The notes beneath the pieces were generated by a model. That model had not been told where the DNA came from. It did not search any database and saw nothing but the letters and a program-made list of their open reading frames with translations. DNA of 64,000 bases from Patescibacteria group bacterium (GTDB lineage: Bacteria > Patescibacteriota > Patescibacteriia > Magasanikbacterales > GWA2-37-8): assembly GCA_041661385.1 (NCBI GenBank), contig JBAZUP010000001.1, forward strand, positions 640,907 to 704,906, written 5' to 3'. A program made the translations under genes and the position numbers. Shown here piece by piece: positions 6,559 to 54,930 of the stretch; positions within the stretch are counted from its first letter, which is position 1, and each line of letters opens with the position of its first letter.

Positions 6559-7695
6559 ATGAAAACATCCGAACTAAAATTCCAACTCCTAAAATTATCC
6601 GCGCTTGTTGTCGCGTGGTTATTTGTATTCAATCCATTACCCGCAAAAGCTGGCAACATCGCTGATATATATTTTGAACAGTCACCGCTGTTTGGGTCAA
6701 CAGATATTGTACCAGGTGATACCGTTGCGAAGTGGGTAAGGGTAATAAATAAAGTGAATGATAATCTAATCGTGACGACTGCGGCTTCTAGTGTAATTAA
6801 TGATGATCATTTAGGTGATCGGCTAAATTTAATAATTAAAAAAAATGGCGTTCTAATTTATTCCGGAACAATGTCAGAATTTTTCACAGCCTCTGAAACG
6901 ATACTCGGCACCATAGCTCCTTACCAAACCGGTCAATATTATTTTACCGTGTCATTCGATAATGCTGCGGGAAATAATTTTCAAGAAAAAACCTTATCTT
7001 TTGATATTGCCGTTTCCGCCCAAGTTTCAGAATCAATTGGCGGCGAAACCCAGGCACCTCAAGGTGGTAGCTCCGGCAACAGTGAATATATTATCAGCGA
7101 TTTAAATTTAACAAATATCAGCGCAAACCTTGTATCAAATCTTTCCACTTCTTCTATCACTATTACTTGGCTTACCAATAAGGCGGCTACATCACGGGTT
7201 GTATATGATACTGTGCCGCACCCCGATCTATCTATGGCTCTGCCACCAAATTACGGATATGCTTCTTCCACCATGCTTGATACAAATAAAGTTACGAGCC
7301 ATTCCGTCACAATTTCCGGATTACTCCTCGGGCAAGCATATTATCTAAGGCCGATTTCTGCAGCATCGCCGGAAAAATTTGGAGCCGAGTTGGCAGTCAT
7401 ACCAAGTGGCGCGGAGCAAATAAATAATACCCAAACTTATAAAAATAACAGCGCAACATATGTTCCAGCTGAATCGCCGGAGAATGAAATCAAAAATATA
7501 AAAATTGCACAAACTGTCCCGATTGCTTCGCCAAGGAGTGAAATCAAAGGCATAAAAATTTCCCGTACTTCCGGCGCCAATAACTTAACCGAATCTGGAA
7601 TCGGCCCTCTGGAGATTGTCTTTTCGGGAGTAAGCATCCTGATTTTGTTTTCTCTCAGAATATTATTAAAGAAAAATAGCGTAGTTACAGATTGA
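6559..7695 (+). CDS. secreted protein with camelysin-like N-domain, FN3-like domain and C-terminal TM anchor
   Basis: 378 aa; signal peptide; IVPGDTVAKWVRVINKVNDNL resembles TasA core; ITITWLTNKAATSRVVYDT FN3-like; hydrophobic C-terminus. Confidence 0.55.
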   Translation: MKTSELKFQLLKLSALVVAWLFVFNPLPAKAGNIADIYFEQSPLFGSTDIVPGDTVAKWVRVINKVNDNLIVTTAASSVINDDHLGDRLNLIIKKNGVLIYSGTMSEFFTASETILGTIAPYQTGQYYFTVSFDNAAGNNFQEKTLSFDIAVSAQVSESIGGETQAPQGGSSGNSEYIISDLNLTNISANLVSNLSTSSITITWLTNKAATSRVVYDTVPHPDLSMALPPNYGYASSTMLDTNKVTSHSVTISGLLLGQAYYLRPISAASPEKFGAELAVIPSGAEQINNTQTYKNNSATYVPAESPENEIKNIKIAQTVPIASPRSEIKGIKISRTSGANNLTESGIGPLEIVFSGVSILILFSLRILLKKNSVVTD

Positions 7696-7719
7696 GATTT
7701 TTTCTGTTTAAAAATAATA

Positions 7720-7766: not shown

Positions 7767-8975
7767 TTACTTCTTCTCCCCCGTTGTGGTGAGCCTCGCG
7801 TCTTCGGCCACCTTTACGCGGTCGAATACATAAACGCACTTCTCACCTTCGGCAGCGCCGCAGGGGTTGTCTTTCCTCTCCTTCACTTTCACCCAGTGAC
7901 CAGTGTCCTTGAGGACGCTGATCTTGGGCACATCGAGCCGGATCTTTTCTTCCACCTTCGGTTCAGGCTTCACTTCAACCTTCACCTCGGGCTTCTTGCT
8001 TGCAAGCTCGATGTCTGCAACCTTCAACGCGGAATTCACGTCGTACACGCAGTCAACAGCGACCACGCCAACGACACCGAGTGAAGAGTTGTTTGAAAGG
8101 CCGAGCCCTACACCAAGCGCCTTGTCGGCGGCATAGTTTGCAGCTCCGCTCGAGCTACCCCCTTGGCCATCTTGGCCGACCGTGAGGTAGACCTGATGAC
8201 CGTAGACGGTGACAATCTTGCGATTGAACGGAGCCGGGATGAGAACCTCATCCACCAGGAACGGCTTTTCATTGTCGAAACCATCGAGCATGCCGTGCAT
8301 CGTCTGCACGCGAACACCCGTCTGCCACAGACCAAAGATCTGTGGAACATGAGCATTGCGCTCGAATGGGCGAACCATGACCCTACGGCCGCAGTCGCCC
8401 ATCTTCTCGAGACGAACACCGCCCATGGCGATGGTGGTCGGAAGCGACGGCGGCTGCACCGGGAAGAAAGTGAGCTCCCGGCTGTTGTCGACATTGGTCG
8501 TGGTCTGATTGACCACCGCACCTCCGCCATTGCCGGAGTTTTCCACCTTCGCCTTGCCGCCCTCAGCGTTTCCGCCAGTTGCATTTCCGCCGGCAGCATT
8601 GCCACCCGCGCCACCAGCACCTCCTTGCGAGGTGGAAGAAGACGAGGCGTCGCCTGTCCTCACATCTCCGGTATGAACCGAAGTGTTCTGGTCACCAGTG
8701 GTGGAGGTCGAGGTAGAACCCGACTGTGCGTTGCCGCCAGTTGCCGTCGAAGCAGAGTTCGACGCCGAGTTGGCATTCGCGGTGACCTGTTGATTCTGGT
8801 CTTGAGACTGATGTTGGTTCTGATCCTGCTTCTGGTTCTGAGTCTGGGTCTGATTCAGGTTGCACGGCTTTCCCTTGGGGTGGCCGTGCTTTTCATCATC
8901 GCAGGCGAAAGCCGACGAAACGAAAAGGAATTGAACGAAAACCGCGAACACTGCCGCAAGCATCTTTTTTGACAT
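7767..8975 (-). CDS. GC-rich secreted protein of unknown function, Gln/Asn/Gly/Ser-rich low-complexity N-half (compositional island A)
   Basis: ATG at 8975 preceded by GGAGG (8983-8987 complement); MSKKMLAAVFAVFVQFLFVSSAFA signal peptide; strong GC3 codon bias unlike flanks; ORF-track start 9047 is an upstream in-frame alternative. Confidence 0.55.
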   Translation of the reverse strand: MSKKMLAAVFAVFVQFLFVSSAFACDDEKHGHPKGKPCNLNQTQTQNQKQDQNQHQSQDQNQQVTANANSASNSASTATGGNAQSGSTSTSTTGDQNTSVHTGDVRTGDASSSSTSQGGAGGAGGNAAGGNATGGNAEGGKAKVENSGNGGGAVVNQTTTNVDNSRELTFFPVQPPSLPTTIAMGGVRLEKMGDCGRRVMVRPFERNAHVPQIFGLWQTGVRVQTMHGMLDGFDNEKPFLVDEVLIPAPFNRKIVTVYGHQVYLTVGQDGQGGSSSGAANYAADKALGVGLGLSNNSSLGVVGVVAVDCVYDVNSALKVADIELASKKPEVKVEVKPEPKVEEKIRLDVPKISVLKDTGHWVKVKERKDNPCGAAEGEKCVYVFDRVKVAEDARLTTTGEKK

Positions 8976-9255
8976 CGAACTGCCTCCGTGGGTGAAAATC
9001 GATTGACCATCAACTTTCTTCATTGCGCAATTGTTGCTTTTGCACAACTGAAGATTCTATCATTTTTTTACCATATTGTCAATGATATATCGATATATTT
9101 AACTGAGCTCCAATCGTATTATCAACCGTAGAATTACCCCAAATCACTTAAAAACCGCCCTTACTTGGTTTATGCACCCTGTTCTACCCTTGATTTTTCA
9201 AAATATTTATGCTATTCTAGTCAAACAAAAATTGATGTTTTTACGCTAATAAAGC

Positions 9256-9341
9256 GGAGAGGTGGCCGAGCGGTTTAAGGCAACAGTCTTGAAAACTGTC
9301 GTGCCTAATAAGCACCGTGAGTTCGAATCTCACCCTCTCCG
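9256..9341 (+). tRNA. tRNA-Ser (anticodon TGA)
   Basis: GGAGAGG...CCTCTCC acceptor, long variable arm, anticodon loop CTTGAAA, T-arm GAGTTCGAATCTC. Confidence 0.9.
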
Positions 9342-9358
9342 CTTTGTTAGTAATAAAC

Positions 9359-9484
9359 GGAGATGAGATTCGAATGGGAAAGGGAGAAAACGGGAGTTTT
9401 TTCTTGATGAGGAAAGCCCACGAAAACCCGAACGGTTTTCGTGAGAGCGAAGCGAGTTCGAATCTCCGATCGCCGCTTTGTTAG
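9359..9484 (+). repeat. tRNA-3'-associated structured element, copy 1
   Basis: begins ggagatgagattcgaa (inverted copy of the tRNA-Ser T-arm and 3' strand). It contains hairpin agaaaacgggagtttttct, core TGATGAGGAAAG, and hairpin GAAAACCCGAACGGTTTTC (9422-9440). It ends gagttcgaatctccgatcgccgctttgttag, a direct copy of the tRNA 3' end and trailer. Confidence 0.6.
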
Positions 9485-9497
9485 TTAAAAATGTAAT

Positions 9498-9584
9498 GGA
9501 GAGGTGGCCGAGCGGTTGAAGGCGTTGGTCTCGAACACCAATAAAGTCGAAAGACTTTCGTGAGTTCGAATCTCACCCTCTCCG
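9498..9584 (+). tRNA. tRNA-Ser (anticodon CGA)
   Basis: same acceptor/T-arm as upstream tRNA-Ser; anticodon loop CTCGAAC; long variable arm aaagtc-gaa-agacttt. Confidence 0.9.
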
Positions 9585-9626
9585 CTAAATTAAATACCAT
9601 CCAATAGGGGTGGTATTTAATTTATT

Positions 9627-9763
9627 GTGAATGATGAGATTCGAACTAAAGATGGAAAGAAACGAAGTTTCTTTCGTGCTGAGGAAAGTTCACGAAAACC
9701 CGAACGGTTTTCGTGAAGCGAATGAAATGAACGTGTTCGAATAGCGAAGTGCTCACCCTCTCC
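9627..9763 (+). repeat. tRNA-3'-associated structured element, copy 2
   Basis: gatgagattcgaac (inverted T-arm) ... gaaagaaacgaagtttctttc hairpin ... TGCTGAGGAAAG ... GAAAACCCGAACGGTTTTC (9694-9712) ... gtgttcgaata...ctcaccctctcc (direct 3' acceptor copy). Confidence 0.6.
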
Positions 9764-9770
9764 ACCAAAA

Positions 9771-15928: not shown

Positions 15929-16110
15929 ATTTATTTGAATTTCCGAGTGATTGAGTTTATATCGAAGATATAAGATATTTTCCCTTATTATACACTAAAT
16001 TAACACAAAATCAACCTATATAAATGATAAGGGCGGCCCAGTTTATGGGCTCGCCCTGTGTGAGGTTTTGCCTGCCCTCAGCAGGCCGCACGGATGCGGA
16101 AATTGGGTAT

Positions 16111-16464
16111 CTACCCGACCACCCCGACAGCTTCGGGGTAAAGAGTCTCGGGGTCGGGCCAGAGGGCCTCATTCACGTCGGCAAGCAAATCACCGAACGA
16201 AATTTCCCTCTCGGGATAGATGCGGTCCGGCTCGAGCCGCACGTAGCCAAGCCGATTGGCCAAAATGACCACATAACGGTGCTTGCCGCTCTTGTTGTAG
16301 ACCGCGAAGGTGAGTCCATCCTTGGTCCCGAAGGTCCCGCCAACCCCGAACTTCCCGGGGATCTTGGCCTTCACTGCCGCAGCGAGTCCGTCCGTTCCGA
16401 AGAACGAAAGCCAGCAAAAGTTTTCGCCAGCCTCAGCAACAGCCACTCTGATGTTAGTCTTCAC
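16111..16464 (-). CDS. GC-rich hypothetical protein (island B)
   Basis: 117 aa; extreme GC3 bias versus flanks; GC-rich hairpins 16031-16056 and 16070-16086 just downstream. Confidence 0.45.
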   Translation of the reverse strand: MKTNIRVAVAEAGENFCWLSFFGTDGLAAAVKAKIPGKFGVGGTFGTKDGLTFAVYNKSGKHRYVVILANRLGYVRLEPDRIYPEREISFGDLLADVNEALWPDPETLYPEAVGVVG

Positions 16465-16864
16465 GTTTTGACTCCTTGTTACTGGGTTTACCCGCCTAGA
16501 AAAGAACGATTTTTAATATTCCAGACCTTTTTATGTGTCTGGAGTGTGGTTTGTTTTGCAAAACACACCTCAAAACATAAAAATGCATAAAAAATCACCC
16601 TTTTTTGAAGGGTGATTATAGTTTTATCGATAAGCGCTACTTCTTAGGCATTTTCAAAAACATAATCACCCCTCTTATAAAAGAAGGCCCAGAAGCTAAA
16701 ATACTGTTGTGATTGATTATGTTTCATAGATTGAATTAAATTTACCCTAAACTTTAGGGGGCGTCAAGTGTGGATAAAATGCCGATAAACTTCAAACTAA
16801 TTTGGAGCTTAATAGGTTGGCAGAGATTAAGCCCTCTGCCATGGCTCCGTCGAAACGGAATGAG

Positions 16865-17185
16865 CTACTTCATAGGGCTCTTGCTGAAGAACCCCTCGCA
16901 GGTTAGGCTGAACAAATAGGCAGCCTCGCTGACCTTGAGATTCGTTCCAGCCTTGAACGAAAGAAGGTTGCCGCCGGAAAACCGGCCCCTCATTCGCGCC
17001 TCGCGCAATTTCTCGATCGTCCCCTCGTCATCGGGCTTCAGTGCACCCGACGCGCACAGCTGCCCCAGCTTGTTGAGCGCTGTCGCTTCATCAGGATCGA
17101 GCACCTGATGAAACACCCCGTAGAAAGATTCGTTCCTGAGCATCGAATCGATCATGAACTTCTGAATCACCGCCGCGTCAATCAT
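16865..17185 (-). CDS. GC-rich hypothetical protein (island B)
   Basis: 106 aa; same compositional class; hairpin ggcagag-attaagccc-tctgcc 16819-16840 downstream. Confidence 0.45.
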   Translation of the reverse strand: MIDAAVIQKFMIDSMLRNESFYGVFHQVLDPDEATALNKLGQLCASGALKPDDEGTIEKLREARMRGRFSGGNLLSFKAGTNLKVSEAAYLFSLTCEGFFSKSPMK

Positions 17186-17224
17186 CGAACTTCTCCTTGT
17201 GAGAGTAAATACAGTTGCTGTGAA

Positions 17225-17590
17225 CTACTTCTTGCTCGCTCGGGAGCTGATCCGCTCGAGGCCGGGCCACACGTTCTTCATGAAGAGTTCCGGCTTGAAG
17301 AACTTGACCGGACGCAGCACGATGGTACGCGCCGCCTCCCTCTCGACCTCCGAGGAGTTTCTGGGGCTATACCAATAACCCCGCTGGATCGCCTTGTGAA
17401 CCATGTCGAGGTCCTCGTCGCTCACGATGATCCGTGACCGATTGGACATGTCGACGAATTCGTCGAGAGACTTCACGACGTTCTCGTCAATCTTCGGCTT
17501 GAAGATGATGAGAAGCCGCTTGGTCACCCGAAGGGAATTCTGCAGCTCAGTGAGAGCCATGTCTTCTGTCTGGAACTGTCCATTTCCCAT
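17225..17590 (-). CDS. GC-rich hypothetical protein (island B)
   Basis: 121 aa; 40-bp gap to next island gene; no recognisable domain. Confidence 0.45.
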   Translation of the reverse strand: MGNGQFQTEDMALTELQNSLRVTKRLLIIFKPKIDENVVKSLDEFVDMSNRSRIIVSDEDLDMVHKAIQRGYWYSPRNSSEVEREAARTIVLRPVKFFKPELFMKNVWPGLERISSRASKK

Positions 17591-17675
17591 TTATTTTACC
17601 CCTTTTTGATGTCTGCCGAGATATTCAGCGGACTAAGAATTCTATCAAAAAAATGGGTTTTTGTCAATGGAAGCC

Positions 17676-17797
17676 GAGGGGAATCGCACTGCTCGGCCTT
17701 CGGCCTGCGCTTTGAGAAACCGTTCGGGTTTCTCAATACTCATCCTCAGCAAGTAAGAGGGCTCGCTGCCCTCTTACCATCTCCCCGTGCGATTCCC
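17676..17797 (-). repeat. tRNA-3'-associated structured element, copy 3 (downstream of tRNA-Cys)
   Basis: read on minus strand: gggaatcgcac (inverted tRNA-Cys T-arm) ... gtaagagggcagcgagccctcttac hairpin ... TGCTGAGGATGAG ... GAGAAACCCGAACGGTTTCTC (17714-17734) ... gagcagtgcgattcccctc (direct copy of the tRNA-Cys 3' end). Confidence 0.6.
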
Positions 17798-17807
17798 AGA
17801 CACAAAT

Positions 17808-32448: not shown

Positions 32449-32598
32449 AGTATTAAATTATTTTTTAGAGATTATAATACTATATCACAGTTTGAATACT
32501 AGCAGTAGTGTTATACCTGTGGATAAACCACTAAATATTATTTATTTTGGCTAAGAATAAGGTGGTAAATAAAAAAACGGCGGTTTGCCGTTTTAATA

Positions 32599-32735
32599 TT
32601 GTGGACCATGTGGAAGCGAACTCGTACTGCTTTGGCAGTACTCTTTGGAAAACCTTCGGGTTTTCCAATACCTTTCCTCGGCAAGTAGGAAAATTCTTTT
32701 CCTACCACCTTTGGTTCGCTTCCGATTGTTAATTG
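32599..32735 (-). repeat. tRNA-3'-associated structured element, copy 4 (downstream of tRNA-Ala-TGC)
   Basis: read on minus: cggaagcgaacc (inverted) ... gtaggaaaagaattttcctac hairpin ... TGCCGAGGAAAGG ... GGAAAACCCGAAGGTTTTCC (32647-32666) ... gagttcgcttccacatggtccacaa (direct copy of tRNA-Ala 3' end ggttcgattccgacatggtccacaa). Confidence 0.6.
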
Positions 32736-32809
32736 TGGACCATGTCGGAATCGAACCGACGGCCTCCGCGTTGCAAACGCGGCGCTCTAGCCAGCTGAGC
32801 TAATGGCCC
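32736..32809 (-). tRNA. tRNA-Ala (anticodon TGC)
   Basis: GGGCCAT...ATGGTCC acceptor with G3:U70, anticodon loop TTTGCAA. Confidence 0.9.
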
Positions 32810-32849
32810 ATATAGGCGATAAATATACTATTTATTCACAAAACAGTCA

Positions 32850-33320
32850 ATGCATGATATAATTCACCTCGATATTAACCATATATTTATGGAACAATCT
32901 GTTTTAACTCAGTTAATTTTCAGCGGCCAAATTCTCCTTTCAATTGGACTTGGTGCGATTCTTGGTTGGCAAAGGGCGCGTTGGGGAAAGTCAGCCGGAC
33001 CACGTACTTATGCCTTAGTAACGGCCGGATCAACGCTTTTTACGCTGCTTTCGAGGTTTGGCTATGATGCTACCATGACCAGTTCCGCAAATATAGCCGG
33101 TCAAATTGTCACCGGTATTGGCTTTCTTGGGGTCGGTCTTATTTTTCACCGCGAGAATCATGTGGATGGTTTAACGACCGCCGCGGGTCTCTGGGCATCG
33201 GCAGCGATTGGTATGTCGGTAGGTCTTTCGTTTTATATTCTCGCAATATTAACGACGACGATATTTTTCTTTGTACTCATGATGGATGAAAAAAAATTAA
33301 GCATTATAAAATCGGAGTAA
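32850..33320 (+). CDS. MgtC/SapB-family membrane protein
   Basis: 156 aa, four TM helices, GQIVTGIGFLGVGLIF...GLTTAAGLWASAAIGM pattern typical of MgtC family. Confidence 0.65.
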   Translation: MHDIIHLDINHIFMEQSVLTQLIFSGQILLSIGLGAILGWQRARWGKSAGPRTYALVTAGSTLFTLLSRFGYDATMTSSANIAGQIVTGIGFLGVGLIFHRENHVDGLTTAAGLWASAAIGMSVGLSFYILAILTTTIFFFVLMMDEKKLSIIKSE

Positions 33321-38332: not shown

Positions 38333-38482
38333 CTAAGTCTCAGTTACGTCCTATATTACTAAATATAGCGCGTCGCTCGCAAAATAGAAACAGGTTTCAT
38401 TTTATTACTCACTAGGGTTATATCGCCAAGATATAGACCCGTCGCTCGGATAAAATGAATAAATTCATTTTGATCCTCACAA

Positions 38483-38553: not shown

Positions 38554-38562
38554 CAAATAGAT

Positions 38563-38587
38563 CAGCCGGTTCAACGGCTGGTTTTTT
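38563..38587 (+). terminator. rho-independent terminator after tRNA pair
   Basis: cagccg-gttcaa-cggctgg followed by tttttt. Confidence 0.7.
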
Positions 38588-38589
38588 AT

Positions 38590-39205
38590 TATTGCTATTC
38601 TTCACAACTTCTTTTACCAATTTTGTTCGCGCAAAACATCCATCTCGTTGTCGCCCGCCTGCAACGCTATGCGTAGCATTGCGGGCAGGCTCAATCAATT
38701 ATTCATTTACCTTAATTTATATTTCCTTAGCCCTCGCCGGGCTGGCGATACTTTCATAACTGAAAGTATCCAAAGGTTTTGGGGAGATCGTCGATATAAC
38801 CACTCATTCGCGAGAACTCGGGATATCGACTTCCCCAAACCCCCATTGGTTGGCCAGTTACCAACTGGCTTCCGAGCCTTTGTGTAACGAGAGCGAAATG
38901 GCCGGCGAAATTAGATTTTTTCAATGTGATTATGCGCTTTTGAAAAAATCGTTTTGATTTCACCGTGACATTTGCCGAGTGGAACAACTGCGAGGCAATT
39001 TTGGGGGCACACCTTTTGTTGCCAAAAGGGGTGCAAAAGAGTTTTGATTGAGTGATAGCTAGGTTGAAATAAATAAAAAATCGACCGCCTGTGGCGGTCG
39101 AACTGGGGATAACTCTGTGTATAAGATGACACTATTGTGGATGTTTGTATACGTTATCCTATACAAATATTTTTTAAAATTTATGAATTTAAAATGTTTC
39201 ACATG
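38590..39205. other. ~600-bp hairpin-rich non-coding tract (candidate structured ncRNA; identity unknown)
   Basis: Successive stem-loops include gatactttca-taact-gaaagtatc (38738-38765), an imperfect long hairpin ggggagatcgtcgatat...atatcgacttcccc, gccagtt-acc-aactggc, and tcgaccgcc-tgt-ggcggtcga (39085-39107). Only short overlapping ORFs without RBS. Confidence 0.3.
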
Positions 39206-39998: not shown

Positions 39999-42900
39999 AT
40001 GTATAATTTAAACGTTAATGTTCTTATGGTGCTTGTCGAGAACATCGCTAAAAAATCCAAGAGACTTGGCAACTGTTTATATAGCCGAGGAGTTTTAATT
40101 TTAACATTGTCGCTATTTGCGGCAATTTTTATTTTTTCCATTAAAACTACCGCCGCAACACCGCCTCCATTCATTACTTATCAAGGACGGCTTTATGTTG
40201 GCACTGCTCCGGCGACCACTACTTTGAATATAAGTTTTACAATGTTTGATGCGCCGACTGCCGGTACGGCAATTTATACCGCATCAGGAACGGTGGGGGT
40301 TCCTGCGGCAGTAAGTACCACACCAGTAAACGGATTATTTACCGTGTATCTAGGTGACACCGGAACAAACGCTCTTGATCCAACTTTGTTTCAGAACAAC
40401 AGCAGTGTTTATTTGGAAGTAGTCGTAAATGGTGAAACATTATTGCCTCGTAAAAGAATTATTTCAACTCCGTTTGCATTTAACGCAAAATATTTAGATG
40501 GTATTGGCGCGACGAGCGCCGCTTCAACTTCTGCCTACATTCCAGTTTCAGATTCAAGCGGAAATTTTAATTTAAATAAAGTTACTTCAACTGGTTTAAA
40601 TGTAACCGGTCAGTCTTCGTTTGCCACCTCAACATTTACCTCAACGACAGTCGCAAACGGAAATATCACAAATTTAATTGCGGGTTCAATTACAACAACA
40701 AATTTTAACACAGTATCTTTTGGCAGTACCAACGCAACTTTTACAAATGTTACTTCAACTAATATTTCTGGTACAAATGCTAACTTAGTTAGTTTGACTT
40801 CGACAAACCAGTTTGCAATTGGCTTAGCCGCGACAAACTTTAATAGTGTCAACGCCACTTCGACTAATAGTTATTCTTCAAATTTTGGTGCGTTAAATTT
40901 GGTCGCTACAAATGTAACCTCAACCAATATTTTTTCTTCGGGCCTGTCATTTACAAACTTAAGCGGCACATCGGCAAATGTAACCAACGTAACAACAACA
41001 AACTTTTTTTCCTCTTCACTAGTTGTAACAAATGGAACAATTACAGATTTTAATTCGACAAACGCTTCTACTACAAATCTATATGTTTCGGGGCTTGTGA
41101 ACTTGCCCGCGAATTCAGTGACAGATGCCATGATTTTTTCGGCAACAACTTGGAACGCAAAACTCGGCCCCAGTTATCCAGCCCTCGCCACCTCATCATT
41201 CTTATATATCGGTTATCAAGCGCTTGCTTCTTCGACTTATTTAACAAACTCCTATTCTGCGCTTGCAACTTCATCGTTCCTCGGTGTTAGTTATCCAGCC
41301 CTTGCTACATCGACATTTTTAACAATTGCCAATTCTACCTCTCTTGCTTATCTTGGACAAAATTATCCGTCGCTTGCTAGCTCAACATTTTTAAATCAAA
41401 ACTATACCGCAATAGCGACTACGACTTTTGTTTCTTATGCTGGAGCAAATAGTAATGTTGATCTTGGCAGTCATGGCATTACTTTTTTAAATGCAACGGG
41501 TACCTCACTTACCTCAACAAATATTTCCGGCACTAATGGTATTTTCGCGAACCTTACTTCAACCAATTCATACATTAGCAATCTTTCAGTTGGGAATTGT
41601 GTCGGCTGTTCTGGTGGTGGGGGCGGAGGCGCGGTGAATACTTCTACTGGGAACTATTTTTCTTATTATTTAAATAGTACCTCCGTTACGGGTACGCCAT
41701 TTATGGTTTTAAGCGGGAGCACAATTGCCATATCCGGCGGTTTAGATGTTACAGGTATTTCTTCTCTTGCTACGACCACCATCACGTCATCAACTATTTC
41801 ATATTTAAACGCAACCAACGTTACTTCGACGTATGCAACTATTACAAATGCCACGTTAACAAATTTAGCTTCTCTAAATCTTTCAGCTACAAATATCGCG
41901 GCAACAAATATTCAATCTACGAATGCAACATCCACCAATCTTGGTATATTGGGGTTGTTTAGTTATGCAAATGCTAGCGGTGTGTCGCTTACCTCGACAA
42001 ATTTATACACTCCAGGACTCTCTTTTACAAACGCAACCGGTACTAATCTATATTTATCAGGACCTGGCAACTCTTTAAATATAGCGAACAATGCAAACAT
42101 TAACGGAACTCTTAGCGTCGGCACAGTTTCTTCTACTAATTATATTGGCAATGCTCAAAATTTATCATTAGCACGTATTGGACAATCAACCTACTCAACA
42201 ATTCAACATTTACAAGATATATTTCATTCTTCCGGTTGGGTAGCCGGCGGCGTAATTGCTGATATTGGAGCCGGTAATGTTAGTGTAGCGGGTGGAACCG
42301 GTTTAATAAGAGGGCAAAATCAAGCAACAACAACTCTGTATTATTTCGATTGGACAGCTTCTTCTAGTATTACAATCGCTGTAAATACAATTCGATATTT
42401 GGGTGTTGAATATAATGGCGGTTCACCGCAAGTGGCACTAAGAACAACTGGAAATTGGAATTATAAAACAGATTTTCCACTTGGTAGAGTTGTAAATGAA
42501 AATGGCACGCTATATATTTCAAATGATGTTCAGGGGGTCGGAGATCATGCCGCCAATATGATTTTAAGAGAGTATGAAACTATGCCGCTCGCGCGTGACG
42601 AAAGAAATGGCGGTCTAATGTTGGGTGAAACCGGAACAAGAAATATTACAATGACAGCGGGTGCTCTTTGGGATCGCTTAAATCGATATCCAATTTCAGC
42701 AATTAATACTGGTGTTAGTGGAAATTTTGATATTTATGTCGGAGCAACGCTAAGCTCTTCCACGCAAACACAATGGCCAAATGCTTATTTTGATAATGCA
42801 GGCGTGCGCACAGTAATGACGAATAATCGTTATGCAAACTTATGGTTTTTCGTTGAGATGGACGGACGGTTGGTAATGGTATATGGAACAAATCAATATT

Positions 42901-45900
42901 CATCAGCAGCCGCTGCGCAGGCTGAAACCATGCCAGTCACTCTTCCGGACCGATTAATTTCCGACGGAAAATTAATTGGTAGAATAGTGTTTTTAAAAAA
43001 TGCCGCTACCGCAACGACAGTTGACTCTGCATTTGATATGGCGTTATCTGTTTCGCAGGCAACGAACCACGCCAATTTGTCGAATCTAGACTATGCTTCA
43101 TCGAATCATACTGGTTTTCAGGCCGCGATTACTACCGGTAACACTGCTCAATATTTCCGCGGTGATTTATCTTTAGCAACTTTAAATCAGGCAGCTATCG
43201 CTGGACTTACAATAACCGACAGTCCGACATTTTTTGGAGTTAGTACTACAAACGCAACAACAACAAACTTTCTGACCACCAATGCAACCTCCACCAATCT
43301 TAATATATTAGGATTGTTTAGTTATGCAAATGCGAATGGTACTTCACTTACCTCGACCAATTTATACACTCCAGGACTTTCTTTTGTGAATGCAAACGGC
43401 ACCTCACTTACCTCGACCAATATATTTACGAGTTTATTTAATGCAACAAACGGAAACTTTACAAATGTTACTACCACTAATCTCTCAGTCGCAACTAGGC
43501 TTTCTTTTGTAAACGCAACTGGTACGAATATTACTTCAACTAATATTTATAATAGTAACCGTTTCGTTTCAATGGGCGATGTAATGATCGGAACTACAAC
43601 ACCGGGCCGGTCACTCGTAGTTTCTAAAGATCAGGCGAACCCTACCGGAATTAATATTTCAAATAAAACTAATGGCGCGGCGTCTAATGCCGGATTATTT
43701 CTTTCAAATGACACTGGTAATGATGACGGTCAATTATTTAAATACGCATCTGGCAATATTGGTTATAAAACTTTAGCTGGTAGCGATCTAGGTTTTTATA
43801 ATGCCGTCGGAGGTAATATTTCGATCTTGAATGATTATGCTTCGGGAAATATAAATTTTGCCGCCGGAGCTGTATCATCGCCACAGCTTATTATTTTACC
43901 AACGGGATTGGTTGGTATTGGTACTGCGGCACCTTCCTCAACACTTCATGTTGTTGGTAATGGTATATTTAGCGGAATATTAACTTCAACAAGTTTTGTT
44001 GCAACCAGGGCGACTACTACCAATCTTGCTGTTACTACCGGGCTTTCATTACCAAACACCAGTGTTACCGATGCCATGATTTCTTCGGCAGCTACCTGGA
44101 ACGCCAAACTCGACTCAAGCTATTCGGCGCTTGCAACTTCTACGTTTCTTAATCAAAGCTATACCGCACTCGCTACCTCAACTTTTCTTTCACTCACCGG
44201 TGGCACGCTGACGGGTGGTTTAAACTTTACTAATGCGACCGGTACCAATCTCAATCTCACCGGCCTATTTAATTTCGTTAATGCAACTGGCACTTCTATC
44301 ACTTCCACCAACGCCACCTTCTCAAGTTCGATTAAGCTTTCATATATAGCAAGCTGTAATGCAAGCAATCAGGCGCTCCAAACTGCTGCTGATGGTTCGG
44401 TATCTTGTGGCACGCTGACTGTTGGCGGTGGGGGTGGCGGAGGAGTAAACACTTCCACGGCCGGATATTTTACTTATTATTCAGGTGCAACTTCGGTCAC
44501 GGGTACTCCATATATGAGTAACGTTGGAAATACTATTGCTTTCACTACTAATACTTCTTTCACCACTTCATCATTTTCTGGTTCGATTGGTGTCGGCACT
44601 ACTAATCCGACATCCAAACTCCATGTATATGATGGAACTTTGTCAGTAGATAATCCGGTTCATCCGAGATTAATTACAACGTATTCCGAAGGGACAATTA
44701 GTGACGCTACTCATCTTATTGTGTCTGGAAAATATGCCTATATAACCGATTATAATAATAATTCACTAACTATAATGGATATTTCTAATCCTGCTTCAAT
44801 GCAGCTAGTTGGCAGAACAGCGAGCGCGTCAAAATTATTAAACGCGAATTATGTTTATGTGGCAGGAAAATATGCTTATGTCGTAGCCTATGGTGTAAAT
44901 GGTCTTGCTGTCGTTGATGTCTCAGATCCGGGCGCACCTACAACCTCAGGTTTTGTAAGCGACCCTACATTACTAAGTCAGCCAGATAAAGTTTATGTTT
45001 CAGGAAGATATGCTTATGTGTCTTCTAACGGCAATAATGGATTAACGATAGTTGATATTTCAAATCCAAAAAAACCGACTATTGCTGGATCGATATCAGA
45101 TGCAACAAATTTGGGGGGAATATCTGGTGTTTATGTGGTTGGTCATTATGCCTATGTGACTTTTGGTTGGGCACCTGGAGGCATGTCCATTATTGATGTT
45201 GCAAATCCGGCTAGTCCGGTAGTGGTCGGTCATACTGAACATCCATACTATTTCAAAGGGCCGTTTTCTATTTATGTTTCGGGCAAGTATGCGTATGTTA
45301 CAACTAAAGACAGTAACGGTCTTGCAGTAGTTAATATTTCTAGTTCGACCGCTCCAACTACGACCGGATTTACTTCATCGACTTATTTAAAGGCTGCGGT
45401 AGATGTCCAGGTTTCTGGAAATTATGCTTATGTTGGAAGTTATGGGGTAGTGGGTGGGGGTATTGCTGTCGTTGATGTCTCCAATCCGGCTGCACCGACC
45501 ACGACCGGAGGGTATACGAGTGCTAGTGTTGGAAATTTGAATTCAATATCTGTTTCGGGTAAGTATGCTTATGTTGTAGCTAGGTGGAGTAATTGGATTT
45601 CATCTTTTGATCTAGAGGGTGCAAATATTTCTACCGCCAATATTGGCAATGTTGCGGCAAGTGATTTGACGGTTTGGGAAAACGCAGAAATCGGAAATAA
45701 TTTGTATGTCGGAAGTGGGTTGAATGTGGGTCTGAACGGAATTAGTACGATGGGACAATTAAACGTGTTTTCTACTACCACCCTACTCGGACAAGTAAAA
45801 ATTGGCACCACGACCGCGCTTTCTACTGCGATGCTTCATGTTGATGCTGGTACCTCCACCGCCTATGGTCTTGCGATAAATGGTTTTGCTCGCGCAACGG

Positions 45901-46883
45901 GTGGATTTTTCGCAAGCACTTCCCTTGATCTTGCGGAACGCTACCCGGTTGATCCGAACTGCGAAGCAAATGGCAATTGCCCGACTGCGGGGGATGTTAT
46001 TTGTCAGGTGGAAAACACTTCTTCATTATATATAGAAAAATGTTCAGTAACATCGAGCCCAATGGCGCTCGGTATAGTTTCAACCGATCCTGGGTTCGTT
46101 CTCGAAGGAGGATTTGCCGAAAGCAACTCGCGCAAAATTGCTCTCGCTGGTCGTGTGCCGGTTAGGGTTTCTACTGCTAATGGGAATATTAAACCCGGAG
46201 ACTTGCTCGCGCCATCGGGTATTTCCGGTATCGCAATAAAAGCTACTGAACCGGGAGTTACTGTCGGTAGAGCACTTGAAAACTATAATCAAAGCACCGT
46301 AAACGGATTTATAATTGCCTATGTTCAGTTGGGTTGGAATCATGTTGAAAACAAAACTATAAATAACTCAGCTTCATCTACTAGCACAATTTCTTCTTCA
46401 CTTTTCGAAAGTATTATTGATGCCTTCAGACAATTTGGAATAATTATTGAGCAGGGAATATTGCGAGTAACTAATTTCTTTGCAAATAAAGTTACCACCG
46501 ACGAATTATGTGTTGGCAACACTTGTGTTAATGAAACGCAATTGATTGAGTTGTTAAACAAGAACAACATGACACCAACTGCACCGGCACCGGCAGTTAC
46601 CCCAGTAGTTGACACAAGTACGCCAGCAGAAACCACCAGTTCAACCGCGCCGGTTATTGATACAACAACCGTAATTAATTCATCGACCACTACCCAACCG
46701 ACAGATACAGCGACAGATACAGGAACAACGCAGCCTGTTGACCCAGTGGTAACACCGCCAGCAGAAACCGTTTCTCCACCATCAACGGAAACAACTCCAG
46801 TCGTTCCGATTGAAACAGCGCCGACTCCAGTCATCGATGTTGCTCCAGCTCCATCAAGTGAACCCGCACCGGCCGCCCTGTAA
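39999..46883 (+). CDS. giant cell-surface fibre/adhesin-like protein (2294 aa): N-terminal TM, tail-fibre-like Ser/Thr/Asn repeats, eight LVIVD beta-propeller repeats, Pro/Thr-rich C-terminus
   Basis: N-terminal hydrophobic anchor, then a conserved beta-domain (ITYQGRLY...LPRKRIISTPFAFNAKYLDG). Long TSTN-type pseudo-repeats with an internal ~110-nt near-identical duplication (~41930 vs ~43290). Repeated GKYAYV..GL.VVDVS.P units (LVIVD repeats) 44650-45600. Start could be Met at 40026. Confidence 0.75.
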   Translation: MYNLNVNVLMVLVENIAKKSKRLGNCLYSRGVLILTLSLFAAIFIFSIKTTAATPPPFITYQGRLYVGTAPATTTLNISFTMFDAPTAGTAIYTASGTVGVPAAVSTTPVNGLFTVYLGDTGTNALDPTLFQNNSSVYLEVVVNGETLLPRKRIISTPFAFNAKYLDGIGATSAASTSAYIPVSDSSGNFNLNKVTSTGLNVTGQSSFATSTFTSTTVANGNITNLIAGSITTTNFNTVSFGSTNATFTNVTSTNISGTNANLVSLTSTNQFAIGLAATNFNSVNATSTNSYSSNFGALNLVATNVTSTNIFSSGLSFTNLSGTSANVTNVTTTNFFSSSLVVTNGTITDFNSTNASTTNLYVSGLVNLPANSVTDAMIFSATTWNAKLGPSYPALATSSFLYIGYQALASSTYLTNSYSALATSSFLGVSYPALATSTFLTIANSTSLAYLGQNYPSLASSTFLNQNYTAIATTTFVSYAGANSNVDLGSHGITFLNATGTSLTSTNISGTNGIFANLTSTNSYISNLSVGNCVGCSGGGGGGAVNTSTGNYFSYYLNSTSVTGTPFMVLSGSTIAISGGLDVTGISSLATTTITSSTISYLNATNVTSTYATITNATLTNLASLNLSATNIAATNIQSTNATSTNLGILGLFSYANASGVSLTSTNLYTPGLSFTNATGTNLYLSGPGNSLNIANNANINGTLSVGTVSSTNYIGNAQNLSLARIGQSTYSTIQHLQDIFHSSGWVAGGVIADIGAGNVSVAGGTGLIRGQNQATTTLYYFDWTASSSITIAVNTIRYLGVEYNGGSPQVALRTTGNWNYKTDFPLGRVVNENGTLYISNDVQGVGDHAANMILREYETMPLARDERNGGLMLGETGTRNITMTAGALWDRLNRYPISAINTGVSGNFDIYVGATLSSSTQTQWPNAYFDNAGVRTVMTNNRYANLWFFVEMDGRLVMVYGTNQYSSAAAAQAETMPVTLPDRLISDGKLIGRIVFLKNAATATTVDSAFDMALSVSQATNHANLSNLDYASSNHTGFQAAITTGNTAQYFRGDLSLATLNQAAIAGLTITDSPTFFGVSTTNATTTNFLTTNATSTNLNILGLFSYANANGTSLTSTNLYTPGLSFVNANGTSLTSTNIFTSLFNATNGNFTNVTTTNLSVATRLSFVNATGTNITSTNIYNSNRFVSMGDVMIGTTTPGRSLVVSKDQANPTGINISNKTNGAASNAGLFLSNDTGNDDGQLFKYASGNIGYKTLAGSDLGFYNAVGGNISILNDYASGNINFAAGAVSSPQLIILPTGLVGIGTAAPSSTLHVVGNGIFSGILTSTSFVATRATTTNLAVTTGLSLPNTSVTDAMISSAATWNAKLDSSYSALATSTFLNQSYTALATSTFLSLTGGTLTGGLNFTNATGTNLNLTGLFNFVNATGTSITSTNATFSSSIKLSYIASCNASNQALQTAADGSVSCGTLTVGGGGGGGVNTSTAGYFTYYSGATSVTGTPYMSNVGNTIAFTTNTSFTTSSFSGSIGVGTTNPTSKLHVYDGTLSVDNPVHPRLITTYSEGTISDATHLIVSGKYAYITDYNNNSLTIMDISNPASMQLVGRTASASKLLNANYVYVAGKYAYVVAYGVNGLAVVDVSDPGAPTTSGFVSDPTLLSQPDKVYVSGRYAYVSSNGNNGLTIVDISNPKKPTIAGSISDATNLGGISGVYVVGHYAYVTFGWAPGGMSIIDVANPASPVVVGHTEHPYYFKGPFSIYVSGKYAYVTTKDSNGLAVVNISSSTAPTTTGFTSSTYLKAAVDVQVSGNYAYVGSYGVVGGGIAVVDVSNPAAPTTTGGYTSASVGNLNSISVSGKYAYVVARWSNWISSFDLEGANISTANIGNVAASDLTVWENAEIGNNLYVGSGLNVGLNGISTMGQLNVFSTTTLLGQVKIGTTTALSTAMLHVDAGTSTAYGLAINGFARATGGFFASTSLDLAERYPVDPNCEANGNCPTAGDVICQVENTSSLYIEKCSVTSSPMALGIVSTDPGFVLEGGFAESNSRKIALAGRVPVRVSTANGNIKPGDLLAPSGISGIAIKATEPGVTVGRALENYNQSTVNGFIIAYVQLGWNHVENKTINNSASSTSTISSSLFESIIDAFRQFGIIIEQGILRVTNFFANKVTTDELCVGNTCVNETQLIELLNKNNMTPTAPAPAVTPVVDTSTPAETTSSTAPVIDTTTVINSSTTTQPTDTATDTGTTQPVDPVVTPPAETVSPPSTETTPVVPIETAPTPVIDVAPAPSSEPAPAAL

Positions 46884-54127: not shown

Positions 54128-54354
54128 CAAATGAACAGAGATTTTAATCTCTGTTTTATTTTGTTTTTAATATTGACAAAAGCGTAATTTTGTGATATTA
54201 TGTTATGTTGCTTTTTACTCTATTTTTAGCAAAAAAAGCGATAAATGCTCATTAAAATGCAGTTTCAGCTGTGCAAATAGCCCATGTTTCGTGGTTTGTT
54301 TGCACGGGTGAACTGCAGTCAACTAGTTCGCGCTATAGGGGCGCAGGAGGAAAC

Positions 54355-54930
54355 ATGACCGTGTTTCGGATTCTTGGCAGGTGGCTGTTCGGCGTCATCA
54401 GTACTCTCGCATTCTTCGGCATCGTGTACGGTGTCGTTTGGTACTTCTTCGGAGTTACCGTAGTCACGTCGAAGTGCGAAAACCAGGACGTGATTTCGAA
54501 GGTGTACATCAACAACGAATACCGGGGCGAAACGCCCCTCAGTGTCCGTCTGGGTATGGGAAATCACATCGTGAAGATCGAGCCTCCCGAAGGTTATCGG
54601 GGTCAGCATCTTTACATGGAGTTCTGGAGTATGGGTCGCGGTATAAATTTCGCCGAGACTCTTACCAAGCTTGACTACCAGGTCACGCTTCACAGTCCTG
54701 CCAGTCAGCCTGGCAACTTCATGGTGATGGACGGAGCCGGAAAACCCATTGGAGCCTGTGGCGGCGTTGTATGTTCAATCCCTCTTCCGGGTCCAGGAAC
54801 CTACCGCGCCAAGCTGGAGCAAATTTGCTGGTCCAGTAACGGGACCCGATGGTGCACCGGCGGCGACGAAAAAGCGATGGACTTTGCTGTCCATCCTGAT
54901 CAGCCGACGGCTGAGATGACGTGGAACTAA
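54355..54930 (+). CDS. GC-rich PEGA-domain membrane protein (island C)
   Basis: AGGAGG 54345-54350 then ATG 54355; N-terminal TM; VYINNEYRGETPLSVRLGMGNHIVKIEPPEGY matches PEGA domain; strong GC3 bias; ORF-track start 54271 is upstream alternative. Confidence 0.6.
   Translation: MTVFRILGRWLFGVISTLAFFGIVYGVVWYFFGVTVVTSKCENQDVISKVYINNEYRGETPLSVRLGMGNHIVKIEPPEGYRGQHLYMEFWSMGRGINFAETLTKLDYQVTLHSPASQPGNFMVMDGAGKPIGACGGVVCSIPLPGPGTYRAKLEQICWSSNGTRWCTGGDEKAMDFAVHPDQPTAEMTWN

Follow-up and report, generated by a model that had tools for sequence, protein, structure and literature searches.

A candidate family of structured RNAs behind tRNA genes of Magasanikbacteria-like bacteria, with a proposed exchange of strands between element and tRNA

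Why should a short intergenic sequence directly behind a transfer RNA (tRNA) gene begin and end with pieces that match this very tRNA? The question is raised by a 64,000-nucleotide stretch of DNA from a Patescibacteria group bacterium (contig JBAZUP010000001.1; hereafter the window), in which a 128-nt element occupies positions 32599–32726 of the minus strand, 8 nt downstream of tRNA-Ala(TGC). A preliminary description had placed here the fourth copy of an element repeated in tRNA trailers, and our analysis confirmed its position. The view of a repeated trailer element was right, but the element had been taken for a local repeat, whereas it belongs to a large RNA family of the candidate phyla radiation (CPR). 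With about even confidence, we assign copy 4 to a family of structured non-coding RNAs (ncRNAs) of ~110–130 nt that had not been catalogued before. Their genes follow tRNA genes immediately, on the strand of the tRNA, in Magasanikbacteria-like CPR bacteria, and we propose that these RNAs swap strands with the tRNA. The key feature of the family had been missed: the 5′ arm of the element fits the cognate tRNA, not its own 3′ arm, which points to a strand-swap fold.

The copies in the window were first seen by a direct-repeat search together with inspection of the tRNA flanks. A covariance model of the element, R1, run over the whole window with filters off, returned exactly four matches, each behind a tRNA (Table 1), and the next best hit scored 13.9 bits; the earlier count of four copies was thus borne out. 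R1 had been built from a trimmed alignment (A3) of 33 members, while a MAFFT alignment (A2) was rejected as seed, P1 and P4 (the closing stem and the last hairpin of the fold described below) being misaligned in it. Four of the seven tRNAs of the window are followed by an element. A C-to-G change that had been read in the loop of the core hairpin of copy 4 proved wrong, since the difference from copies 1–3 is one missing C (CGAA versus CGAAC). The CGAA loop occurs in 78 of 85 members and is the ancestral or common form, copies 1–3 carrying the rare one.

Beyond the window, 185,579 species genomes were scanned for the exact pattern GAGGA-N10-11-AAACCCGAA-N0-1-GGTTT, which yielded at least 113 loci (individual loci are referred to below by L numbers). 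About 85 of the listed pattern matches were clearly the same element, with several per genome, and among the matches listed the sources were mostly metagenome-assembled genomes (MAGs) of Candidatus Magasanikbacteria, Uhrbacteria and other Patescibacteria. Applied to the ~80 fetched loci, R1 found at least 85 members outside the window, including some that the pattern had missed. A tRNA was detected 9–91 nt upstream on the same strand for 62 of 85 elements. All elements were oriented like their tRNA, and tRNAs of every isotype were represented. Of 59 loci, 52 had a terminator-like hairpin separating the tRNA from the element, and 46 had one after the 3′ tail. Copy 4 differs from most members in having no terminator between tRNA and element, a feature that is frequent but not obligatory. 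The statement that the element exists independently of GC-rich islands was correct for copy 4 and is true of most family members.

The members share a fold composed of a closing stem, P1, and three hairpins, P2–P4, with purine-rich junctions such as GAGGAAAG. Among 86 distinct sequences aligned to R1, and thus fitted to the model itself, standard pairs filled 86.8% of cells as compared with 72.8% in shuffles, and 29 of 32 pairs had changed on both sides (407 cells). The covariation score of this alignment was 0.408 against 0.161 in shuffles, none of 500 shuffles reached 0.408, and sliding the partners by 1–3 columns as a control gave at most 0.12. Independently, MAFFT combined with RNAalifold revealed compensatory changes in 12 of 17 predicted pairs in P2 and P3. 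G–U pairs were common, e.g., in 57 and 52 of 86 sequences at the base of P2, and would be A–C mismatches on the opposite strand; furthermore, the P2 loops were of the GNRA type on the tRNA strand. The frequent G–U pairs and the GNRA loops indicated that the tRNA strand is the RNA strand. An arrangement with the tRNA on the opposite strand was rejected, as it offers no T-stem or acceptor pairing and the G–U pairs sit on the tRNA strand. P1 was recovered both by RNAalifold and by the covariance model, although its positions 10 and 11 were unpaired in 49–53 of 86 sequences. An attempt to extend P1 by a naive ungapped helix search was given up because T-runs confounded it through G–U pairing, and the model-based alignment was used.

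These data bear on the simplest explanation of the locus, that is, chance similarity or a small protein gene. A 61-codon open reading frame (ORF, 32547–32732) does overlap the element on the plus strand. However, it has no Pfam match and runs through the terminator hairpin, the lengths of family members are not multiples of three but spread over all three residues modulo 3, and compensatory changes mark the evolution of the hairpins. These findings show the ORF to be spurious, as had been suspected. Chance is countered by the R1 match of copy 4 (85.9 bits, E ~1e-22), a score that arises partly by construction, as copy 4 (unlike copy 2) was among the 33 seed sequences, and by at least 85 further homologues with compensatory changes. 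We thus consider this explanation effectively refuted.

We then compared the ends of the elements with their tRNAs. A tRNA just upstream was detected in 75 of 114 pattern matches. The tail was defined as a match to the last 12 nt of the tRNA with at most two mismatches, the tRNA end lying 50–300 nt upstream of GAGGA, and was located in 61 of the 72 loci meeting the distance condition. In nearly all of these 61, the last 14–19 nt of the tRNA recur exactly at the 3′ end of the element. The repeated segment comprises the T-stem 3′ strand, the acceptor 3′ strand and the discriminator, plus CCA where encoded. Its identity usually ends at the tRNA end, while the flanks, including the two terminator hairpins, have diverged; only in a few loci (L085, L091, L050) does it run 7–30 nt past the tRNA. 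Moreover, the tail tracks differences of the tRNA between genomes, for example in Lys(ttt) elements.

At the other end, the 5′ arm is antisense to the cognate tRNA throughout the family, covering its T-loop and the 3′ strand of its T-stem. Over 14 nt, the median number of mismatches was 2 to the tRNA as opposed to 5 to the element's own 3′ arm, and the fit to the tRNA was better in 61 of 64 members and never worse, copy 4 being one of the three ties. The arm pairs with tRNA nucleotides 53–61 in 52–56 of 56 loci, and at the variable tRNA position 59 all four Watson–Crick combinations with the arm were seen. Against the own 3′ arm, positions 55/56 were paired in only 5–6 of 36. This 3′ arm is mostly generic GUGAGAUU, which we take to represent a T-loop-like motif (U-G-N-R-A) and which would give tandem G–A mismatches in P1. 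Where the tRNA has a rare T-loop variant, the arm shows the matching sequence, as with GUCCGAUU in L093 and GUGCGAUU in copy 3 of the window. Lys(ttt) elements belong mostly to one subtype; their tRNAs have G, A or U at position 59, and the arm matches this nucleotide in four of five (L067, L103, L023, L107), the arm of L104 aligning out of register.

The anatomy of copy 4 is summarised in Table 1. The 13 nt of its tail are identical to the end of the tRNA-Ala gene, from the final T-stem nucleotide through the acceptor 3′ strand and the discriminator to 3 nt beyond it. The view that the terminal arms come from this tRNA 3′ end, or at least match it, was supported. The figure of 20 identities in 25 given for this end is approximate, as we counted 17 of 25 ungapped and 22 of 25 with one 1-nt gap. 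The T-stem part of the tail has diverged (two mismatches in the 14-mer, equivalent to a 1-nt gap), so that the match is partial compared with the usual exact 14–19 nt. The 5′ arm forms 10 of 10 pairs with the own 3′ arm, giving a perfect 10-bp P1 in RNAfold, while a comparison of its reverse complement (11 nt) with the T-loop region of the tRNA shows a single mismatch, C for A. Over 14 nt, the arm shows three mismatches to the tRNA and three to the own arm; its 10-nt core pairs fully with the own arm and leaves a single mismatch towards the tRNA, and copy 4 thus lacks the better fit to the tRNA seen elsewhere. The cognate tRNA-Ala contains G3:U70, and CCA is not encoded. The promoter-like site upstream of this tRNA is the putative start of a transcription unit covering tRNA and element. 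A sequence scan found no terminator-like signal between the two, and a hairpin was present after copy 4, where a terminator had been described. A promoter-like site before the tRNA, a terminator after the tail and none in between suggest that tRNA-Ala and copy 4 form one transcription unit.

Table 1. Features of copy 4 in the order of its strand, and the four copies of the element in the window.
Feature	Position	Strand	Remarks
Promoter-like site, TTGACT-17-TATATT	32822–32850	−	10/12 consensus matches; consensus match only; upstream of tRNA-Ala
tRNA-Ala(TGC), complete	32735–32809	−	ARAGORN; Rfam tRNA 69.9 bits; cognate tRNA of copy 4
Spacer between tRNA-Ala and copy 4, 8 nt	32727–32734	−	no terminator in between
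5′ arm, GGAAGCGAAC	32714–32723	−	T-loop/T-stem antisense segment; 5′ strand of closing stem P1
Hairpin P2, GTAGGAAAA-GAA-TTTTCCTAC	32685–32705	−	RNAfold and covariance model; covariation across family
Junction, GAGGAAAG	32672–32679	−	invariant or nearly so in family alignments A2/A3, its GAGGA part being itself in the search pattern
Hairpin P3, core GGAAAACC-CGAA-GGTTTTCC	32645–32668	−	contains the core of the preliminary description (32647–32666); outer pairs covary
Hairpin P4, GTACTGC-CAAA-GCAGTAC	32624–32641	−	variable hairpin of the family; members differ in length and sequence
3′ arm, GTTCGCTTCC	32612–32621	−	T-loop-like; 3′ strand of P1
3′ tail, ACATGGTCCACAA, 13 nt	32599–32611	−	single-stranded; identical to tRNA gene end
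Intrinsic terminator-like hairpin and T-run	32567–32594 (hairpin 32574–32594)	−	just past tail; ends unit
Copy 1	9357–9476	+	after tRNA-Ser(TGA); 96.2 bits; decayed tail, 4/7 acceptor pairs
Copy 2	9629–9765	+	after tRNA-Ser(CGA) and terminator hairpin; 74.6 bits
Copy 3	17668–17801	−	after tRNA-Cys and terminator hairpin; 81.8 bits; tail partly decayed
Copy 4	32599–32726	−	after tRNA-Ala(TGC); 85.9 bits, E ~1e-22 (seed member, score partly by construction); model positions 1–113

Unconstrained minimum free energy folding of tRNA plus element from six typical members predicted the same swapped fold each time. In this fold, the D and anticodon arms are normal, the distal tail is the partner of the 5′ acceptor strand and the T-stem 5′ strand of the tRNA, and the tRNA's own segment from T-loop to 3′ end pairs with the 5′ arm of the element. 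The latter pairing, together with the A-tract, terminator stem and U-tract, makes up one hairpin of ~35–40 bp. When acceptor pairing was constrained to the proximal or the distal strand, the distal (swapped) form had the lower predicted energy in 54 of 54 loci, with a median of −10.5 kcal/mol. Within the window, copy 2 showed the typical swap-competent architecture with a difference in folding free energy (ddG) of −15.1 kcal/mol, and in copy 3 the swap was not favoured (+6.9 kcal/mol). For copy 4, the distal-acceptor fold was predicted to be slightly favoured (−4.1 kcal/mol), but in it the T-arm of the tRNA stays as it is. The tail of this copy could form all seven acceptor pairs with the 5′ strand of the tRNA. 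We class copy 4 as atypical and partly uncoupled: its arms pair with one another, and of its tail the acceptor part alone still fits the tRNA.

We propose that the element would be transcribed from the tRNA promoter. Copy 4 would be part of every transcript if the promoter assignment is right, whereas in most members the element would be made only upon terminator read-through, owing to the terminator hairpin that separates it from the tRNA. Once a long transcript is made, the tRNA's own 3′ portion would be drawn by the 5′ arm into the long hairpin, with the terminator at its tip, and the distal tail would then replace this portion in the T-stem and the acceptor stem. The product would be a tRNA-shaped RNA in which the elbow (T-loop) is replaced by the conserved three-hairpin core, so that the core is mounted on its tRNA. 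Such a swapped isoform might be a scaffolded or regulatory RNA, a sequestered tRNA or the substrate of a dedicated protein. A strand swap would explain together why the tail corresponds to T-stem and acceptor of the tRNA, why the arm follows the T-loop and why the T-loop-like segment beside the tail is free to be generic. We infer the long transcript, the swap in cells and any function.

Alternatively, the element could be a free small RNA (sRNA) that is released from the tRNA trailer and acts in its P1-closed form. No swap would then take place, and the similarity to the tRNA would be a relic of local duplication, kept since P1 needs two complementary strands. Copy 4 itself lends this idea some weight, as P1 consists of perfect Watson–Crick pairs in copies 3 and 4, and the arms of copy 4 have changed jointly away from the tRNA (GCGAA/TTCGC versus TTCGA in the tRNA). 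The recovery of P1 by RNAalifold and by the model is also in line with a free sRNA. RNase Z-type cleavage is part of tRNA 3′ processing, and a cut after the tRNA would release exactly such an RNA. A precedent of tRNA–snoRNA (small nucleolar RNA) type is cited in a passage of PMC12045711. Yet across the family it is the tRNA T-loop, not the own 3′ arm, to which the 5′ arm is matched, and P1 positions 10 and 11 are unpaired in more than half of the sequences (see above). Moreover, a relic would not keep a single-stranded acceptor tail identical to the tRNA across divergent genomes. We therefore judge a free sRNA without swap to be quite unlikely.

The strongest rival is a miniature non-autonomous integrative element or the scar of one, which we regard as unlikely. 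In detail, a unit of ~150 bp (terminator, arm and core) would have been inserted by site-specific recombination into the T-loop region of the tRNA. It would bring its own copy of the tRNA 3′ end, and the original would be pushed to the far side, like attL/attR. Recombinases encoded on larger islands would act in trans, and the hairpins would be single-stranded DNA recombination sites or an element-encoded RNA. The classic hallmark of tRNA-targeting islands is a direct repeat that reaches from the T-loop or T-stem to where the tRNA ends. Williams (NAR 30:866), in 2002, reportedly described tRNA 3′ repeats as the signature of islands integrated in tRNA genes. In copy 4, a direct repeat of the tRNA 3′ part bounds the DNA inserted at the tRNA, as in attR-type fragments, and such repeats serve as the mark of elements integrated in tRNA genes (van der Gulik et al. 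2023, PMC9897764). The extension of the repeat beyond the tRNA in L085, L091 and L050, tandem and partial copies as well as small islands between tRNA and element (L006, L019, L034, L051, L058), the patchy presence among close relatives and the rare CGAAC loop shared by three of the four window copies at different tRNAs all agree with insertion. In L077, the element is directly preceded by a displaced tRNA 3′ end, and an island with a large serine recombinase separates this end from tRNA-Arg(GCG).

On the other hand, no recombinase was found within or consistently beside the elements, copy 4 has 128 nt between its repeats and no real ORF, and the unit is far too small for a double-stranded circle. 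A search of 2.9 million viral contigs gave two matches, of which the one inspected was due to chance, and a phage origin was rejected on this basis. Elements of the same subtype occur at the same tRNA type with conserved synteny in divergent genomes, and the RNA-type covariation, strand-specific G–U pairs and GNRA loops likewise argue against this rival. In addition, all isotypes are occupied with matching ends, which a sequence-specific integrase would not explain, and the tail stays identical though the flanks have diverged. Origin by tRNA-targeted insertion and a present RNA function are compatible and not mutually exclusive.

Some observations concern other islands at such tRNAs. The L077 island lies ~3.3 kb upstream of the element (7598–7718, with the locus oriented such that the element is on the plus strand) and codes for the serine recombinase, which has Resolvase, Recombinase and Zn_ribbon_recom domains, and for a 500-aa protein. 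L006 and other loci contain small islands ending in a conserved ACATCGTC beside a tRNA 3′ copy. At L003/L088, L006, L046 and L059, no tRNA was detected just upstream, though an acceptor 3′ strand closes the sequence ahead of the first terminator, ~60–100 nt upstream of the element; these strands are preceded by the shared motif (A/G)A(C/A)ATCGTC, not by a T-loop, which looks like the conserved right end of another family of tRNA-inserted islands.

The locus of copy 4 could also be followed in other genomes. In the L075 MAG, MgtC and a neighbouring protein are only 48–54% identical to those of the window, but the same divergent MgtC/tRNA-Ala(TGC) arrangement is found with an element of the same subtype, the P2 of which is nearly identical to that of copy 4. 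Subtypes follow the tRNA type across genomes, which together with L075 argues for long vertical persistence. In six closer syntenic loci (MgtC 63–77% identical) the tRNA was kept in all. Behind the syntenic tRNA-Ala(TGC) of L118 (1178–1303, minus strand) we found a divergent relative scoring 23 bits with R1, which has the same layout of arms and junction but a different P3 core, GAGAGGGTGGAAACCCTTTC, so that the pattern could not have found it. The pattern of presence and absence at this tRNA would fit losses as well as gains. The element is widespread, old, probably often lost and non-essential at a given tRNA.

Several points weigh against the proposed strand-swapped RNA family. Four closer relatives (L119–L122) have tRNA-Ala(TGC) without the element, and L117 retains only an apparent remnant of the 5′ arm, from which we conclude that the element is dispensable at this tRNA. 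More generally, 62 of the 119 tRNAs in the family loci, about half, carry an element. In the window, the arms of copies 3 and 4 pair perfectly with each other, and the tails of copies 1 and 3 have decayed. The complementarity of arm and tRNA could partly be a relic of a copy origin with target-derived ends, not the result of selection. As the pattern fixed GAGGA and the P3 core, the invariance observed there is partly due to ascertainment, and the true family is wider, as seen with L118. Finally, all folds are predicted, and co-transcriptional folding would favour the normal tRNA first, while the long RNA may be rare because a strong terminator precedes the element in most members.

How does the element relate to known systems? 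A whole-window scan with Rfam 15 at gathering score returned tRNAs only. On the element regions, matches with E up to 10 were sub-threshold and judged to be chance (isrK, lactis-plasmid, CRISPR-DR57, snR64, SNORD42), and no gathering-score match was obtained to hammerhead, twister, pistol, hatchet or hepatitis delta virus (HDV)-like ribozymes, box C/D RNA, transfer-messenger RNA (tmRNA), T-box or group I/II introns. In the open-access papers that we searched in full text, the element was not described. A box C/D guide RNA was considered in view of AUGAUGA and CUGA motifs in copies 1 and 2 and rejected, because the motifs are unconserved in the family and the guide is not beside the D box. A hammerhead-like core (CUGANGA...GAAA) was dismissed as well, since CUGA is unconserved, the fold has four helices and Rfam gave no match. 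TIGR-Tas arrays (PMC12045711), taken up as a lead to CPR guide RNAs, are 36-nt arrays unrelated in form.

The closest parallels are only partial. The attR tRNA fragments (PMC9897764) resemble the element in the order of a complete tRNA, inserted DNA and a repeat of the tRNA 3′ part from T-loop or T-stem, and in forming arrays with further islands at the same sites. Unlike such islands, the element has an insert of only ~110–170 nt and no recombinase, encodes a conserved folded RNA with covariation, contains an inverted T-loop/T-stem copy, has one core behind all isotypes and is kept at syntenic tRNAs. Dicistronic tRNA–ncRNA transcripts (plant tRNA–snoRNA processed via RNase Z, and the E. coli sponge 3′ETS-leuZ, from the 3′ external transcribed spacer of leuZ) have an ncRNA in the tRNA trailer that is expressed from the tRNA promoter, as proposed for the element. 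The RNAs of these dicistrons, however, are unrelated in sequence to their tRNA, whereas both ends of the element match it, and a terminator usually separates tRNA and element. In analogy to the internal guide of group I introns (P1/P10), a 5′ guide could pair alternately with the end of an upstream 'exon', here the tRNA's own 3′ part, and with a downstream segment, here the 3′ arm of the element; the ~85-nt core is nevertheless far too small for a group I catalytic core, there is no Rfam intron match and the tRNA is complete without splicing. In tmRNA and in the split or permuted tRNAs of Archaea and red algae, acceptor and T-stem are built from distant segments around an inserted domain, as in the swapped fold. 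Here, in contrast, the insertion is in the T-loop and not on the anticodon side, all isotypes are concerned, no reading frame is present and no BHB motif was demonstrated; homology to tmRNA was not found beyond fragments with E > 0.6. Bacterial miniature inverted-repeat transposable elements (MITEs) and repetitive extragenic palindromic (REP)-type repeats are also short, multi-copy, hairpin-forming and intergenic. The element differs from MITEs in that its arms vary by copy and match the adjacent tRNA, its orientation and position are fixed to tRNAs, and a short target-site duplication is missing, the flanking repeat being 14–19 nt of tRNA. As it departs from each of the systems compared, we treat the element, judged against Rfam 15 and open-access papers, as a new kind of tRNA-linked structured RNA.

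Further features of the collection and the window deserve mention. Many MAGs with the element on several contigs are labelled 'uncultured Gammaproteobacteria' (L015–L018, L023, L025, L028, L038, L043, L044, L046, L047, L051, L055, L057–L060, L074, L075 and L077). These labels are probably wrong; at least L075 shares synteny with the Patescibacteria window. Positions 9256–9765 of the window hold a tandem of tRNA-Ser(TGA), copy 1, tRNA-Ser(CGA), terminator and copy 2. Lying between two tRNAs without a terminator, copy 1 would be an internal spacer of a polycistronic tRNA transcript. The rare loop shared by copies 1–3 behind different tRNAs hints at within-genome spread or homogenisation. The spacer between tRNA-Arg(CCT) and tRNA-Ala(CGC) (38334–38482) has no element but two similar short blocks, gcgcgtcgctcgcaaaata and cccgtcgctcggataaaat, whereas an Arg(CCT)–Ala tRNA pair of the same order in L024 does have one.

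GC-rich stretches are located beside tRNA genes at 7767–9047, ~16000–17660, 38560–38900 and 54240–54930, with up to 58% GC in a window of 41% GC. Both of their strands carry ORFs that overlap each other. In three of the four stretches no Pfam match was obtained for the main ORFs, and one ORF gave a weak PEGA match. Additional copies of the neighbouring tRNA 3′ end were searched at the far ends of these islands in the window, and none was found. The stretches are probably foreign islands or non-coding DNA. A 2294-aa ORF at 39999–46883, full of internal repeats (families of a 41-nt unit, 138-nt tandem units and others), may encode a large surface protein of repetitive build. Conserved blocks (ttatccacag...tataatactactgctagtat) precede the class I ribonucleotide reductase gene in all syntenic loci (window 32470–32560; likewise L117, L118 and L122) and may represent NrdR-type operator boxes.

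What would the element mean for its hosts? If the integrative explanation were true, it would be a mobile element of very small size that targets tRNAs and is under RNA-like constraints, likewise something unusual. A bolder version of the strand swap, to which we give only a tentative and rather low likelihood, holds that many tRNA genes would yield two forms, the ordinary tRNA and a read-through, strand-swapped one, in which a protein-recruiting, catalytic or sensing module would use any tRNA as its chassis. This would constitute a new class of tRNA-embedded RNA and couple tRNA identity to another process in ultra-small symbionts. If the proposed family with its strand swap is real, it would be an unusual natural two-state RNA, in which a distal copy displaces the proximal 3′ strand, and annotators would be warned that 'tRNA fragments' beside tRNA genes are not always integration scars. 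A whole CPR clade would then attach a conserved folded RNA, with ends that co-vary with each tRNA, to a large share of its tRNA genes, and a sizeable RNA family would be added to organisms whose non-coding RNA content is almost unknown.

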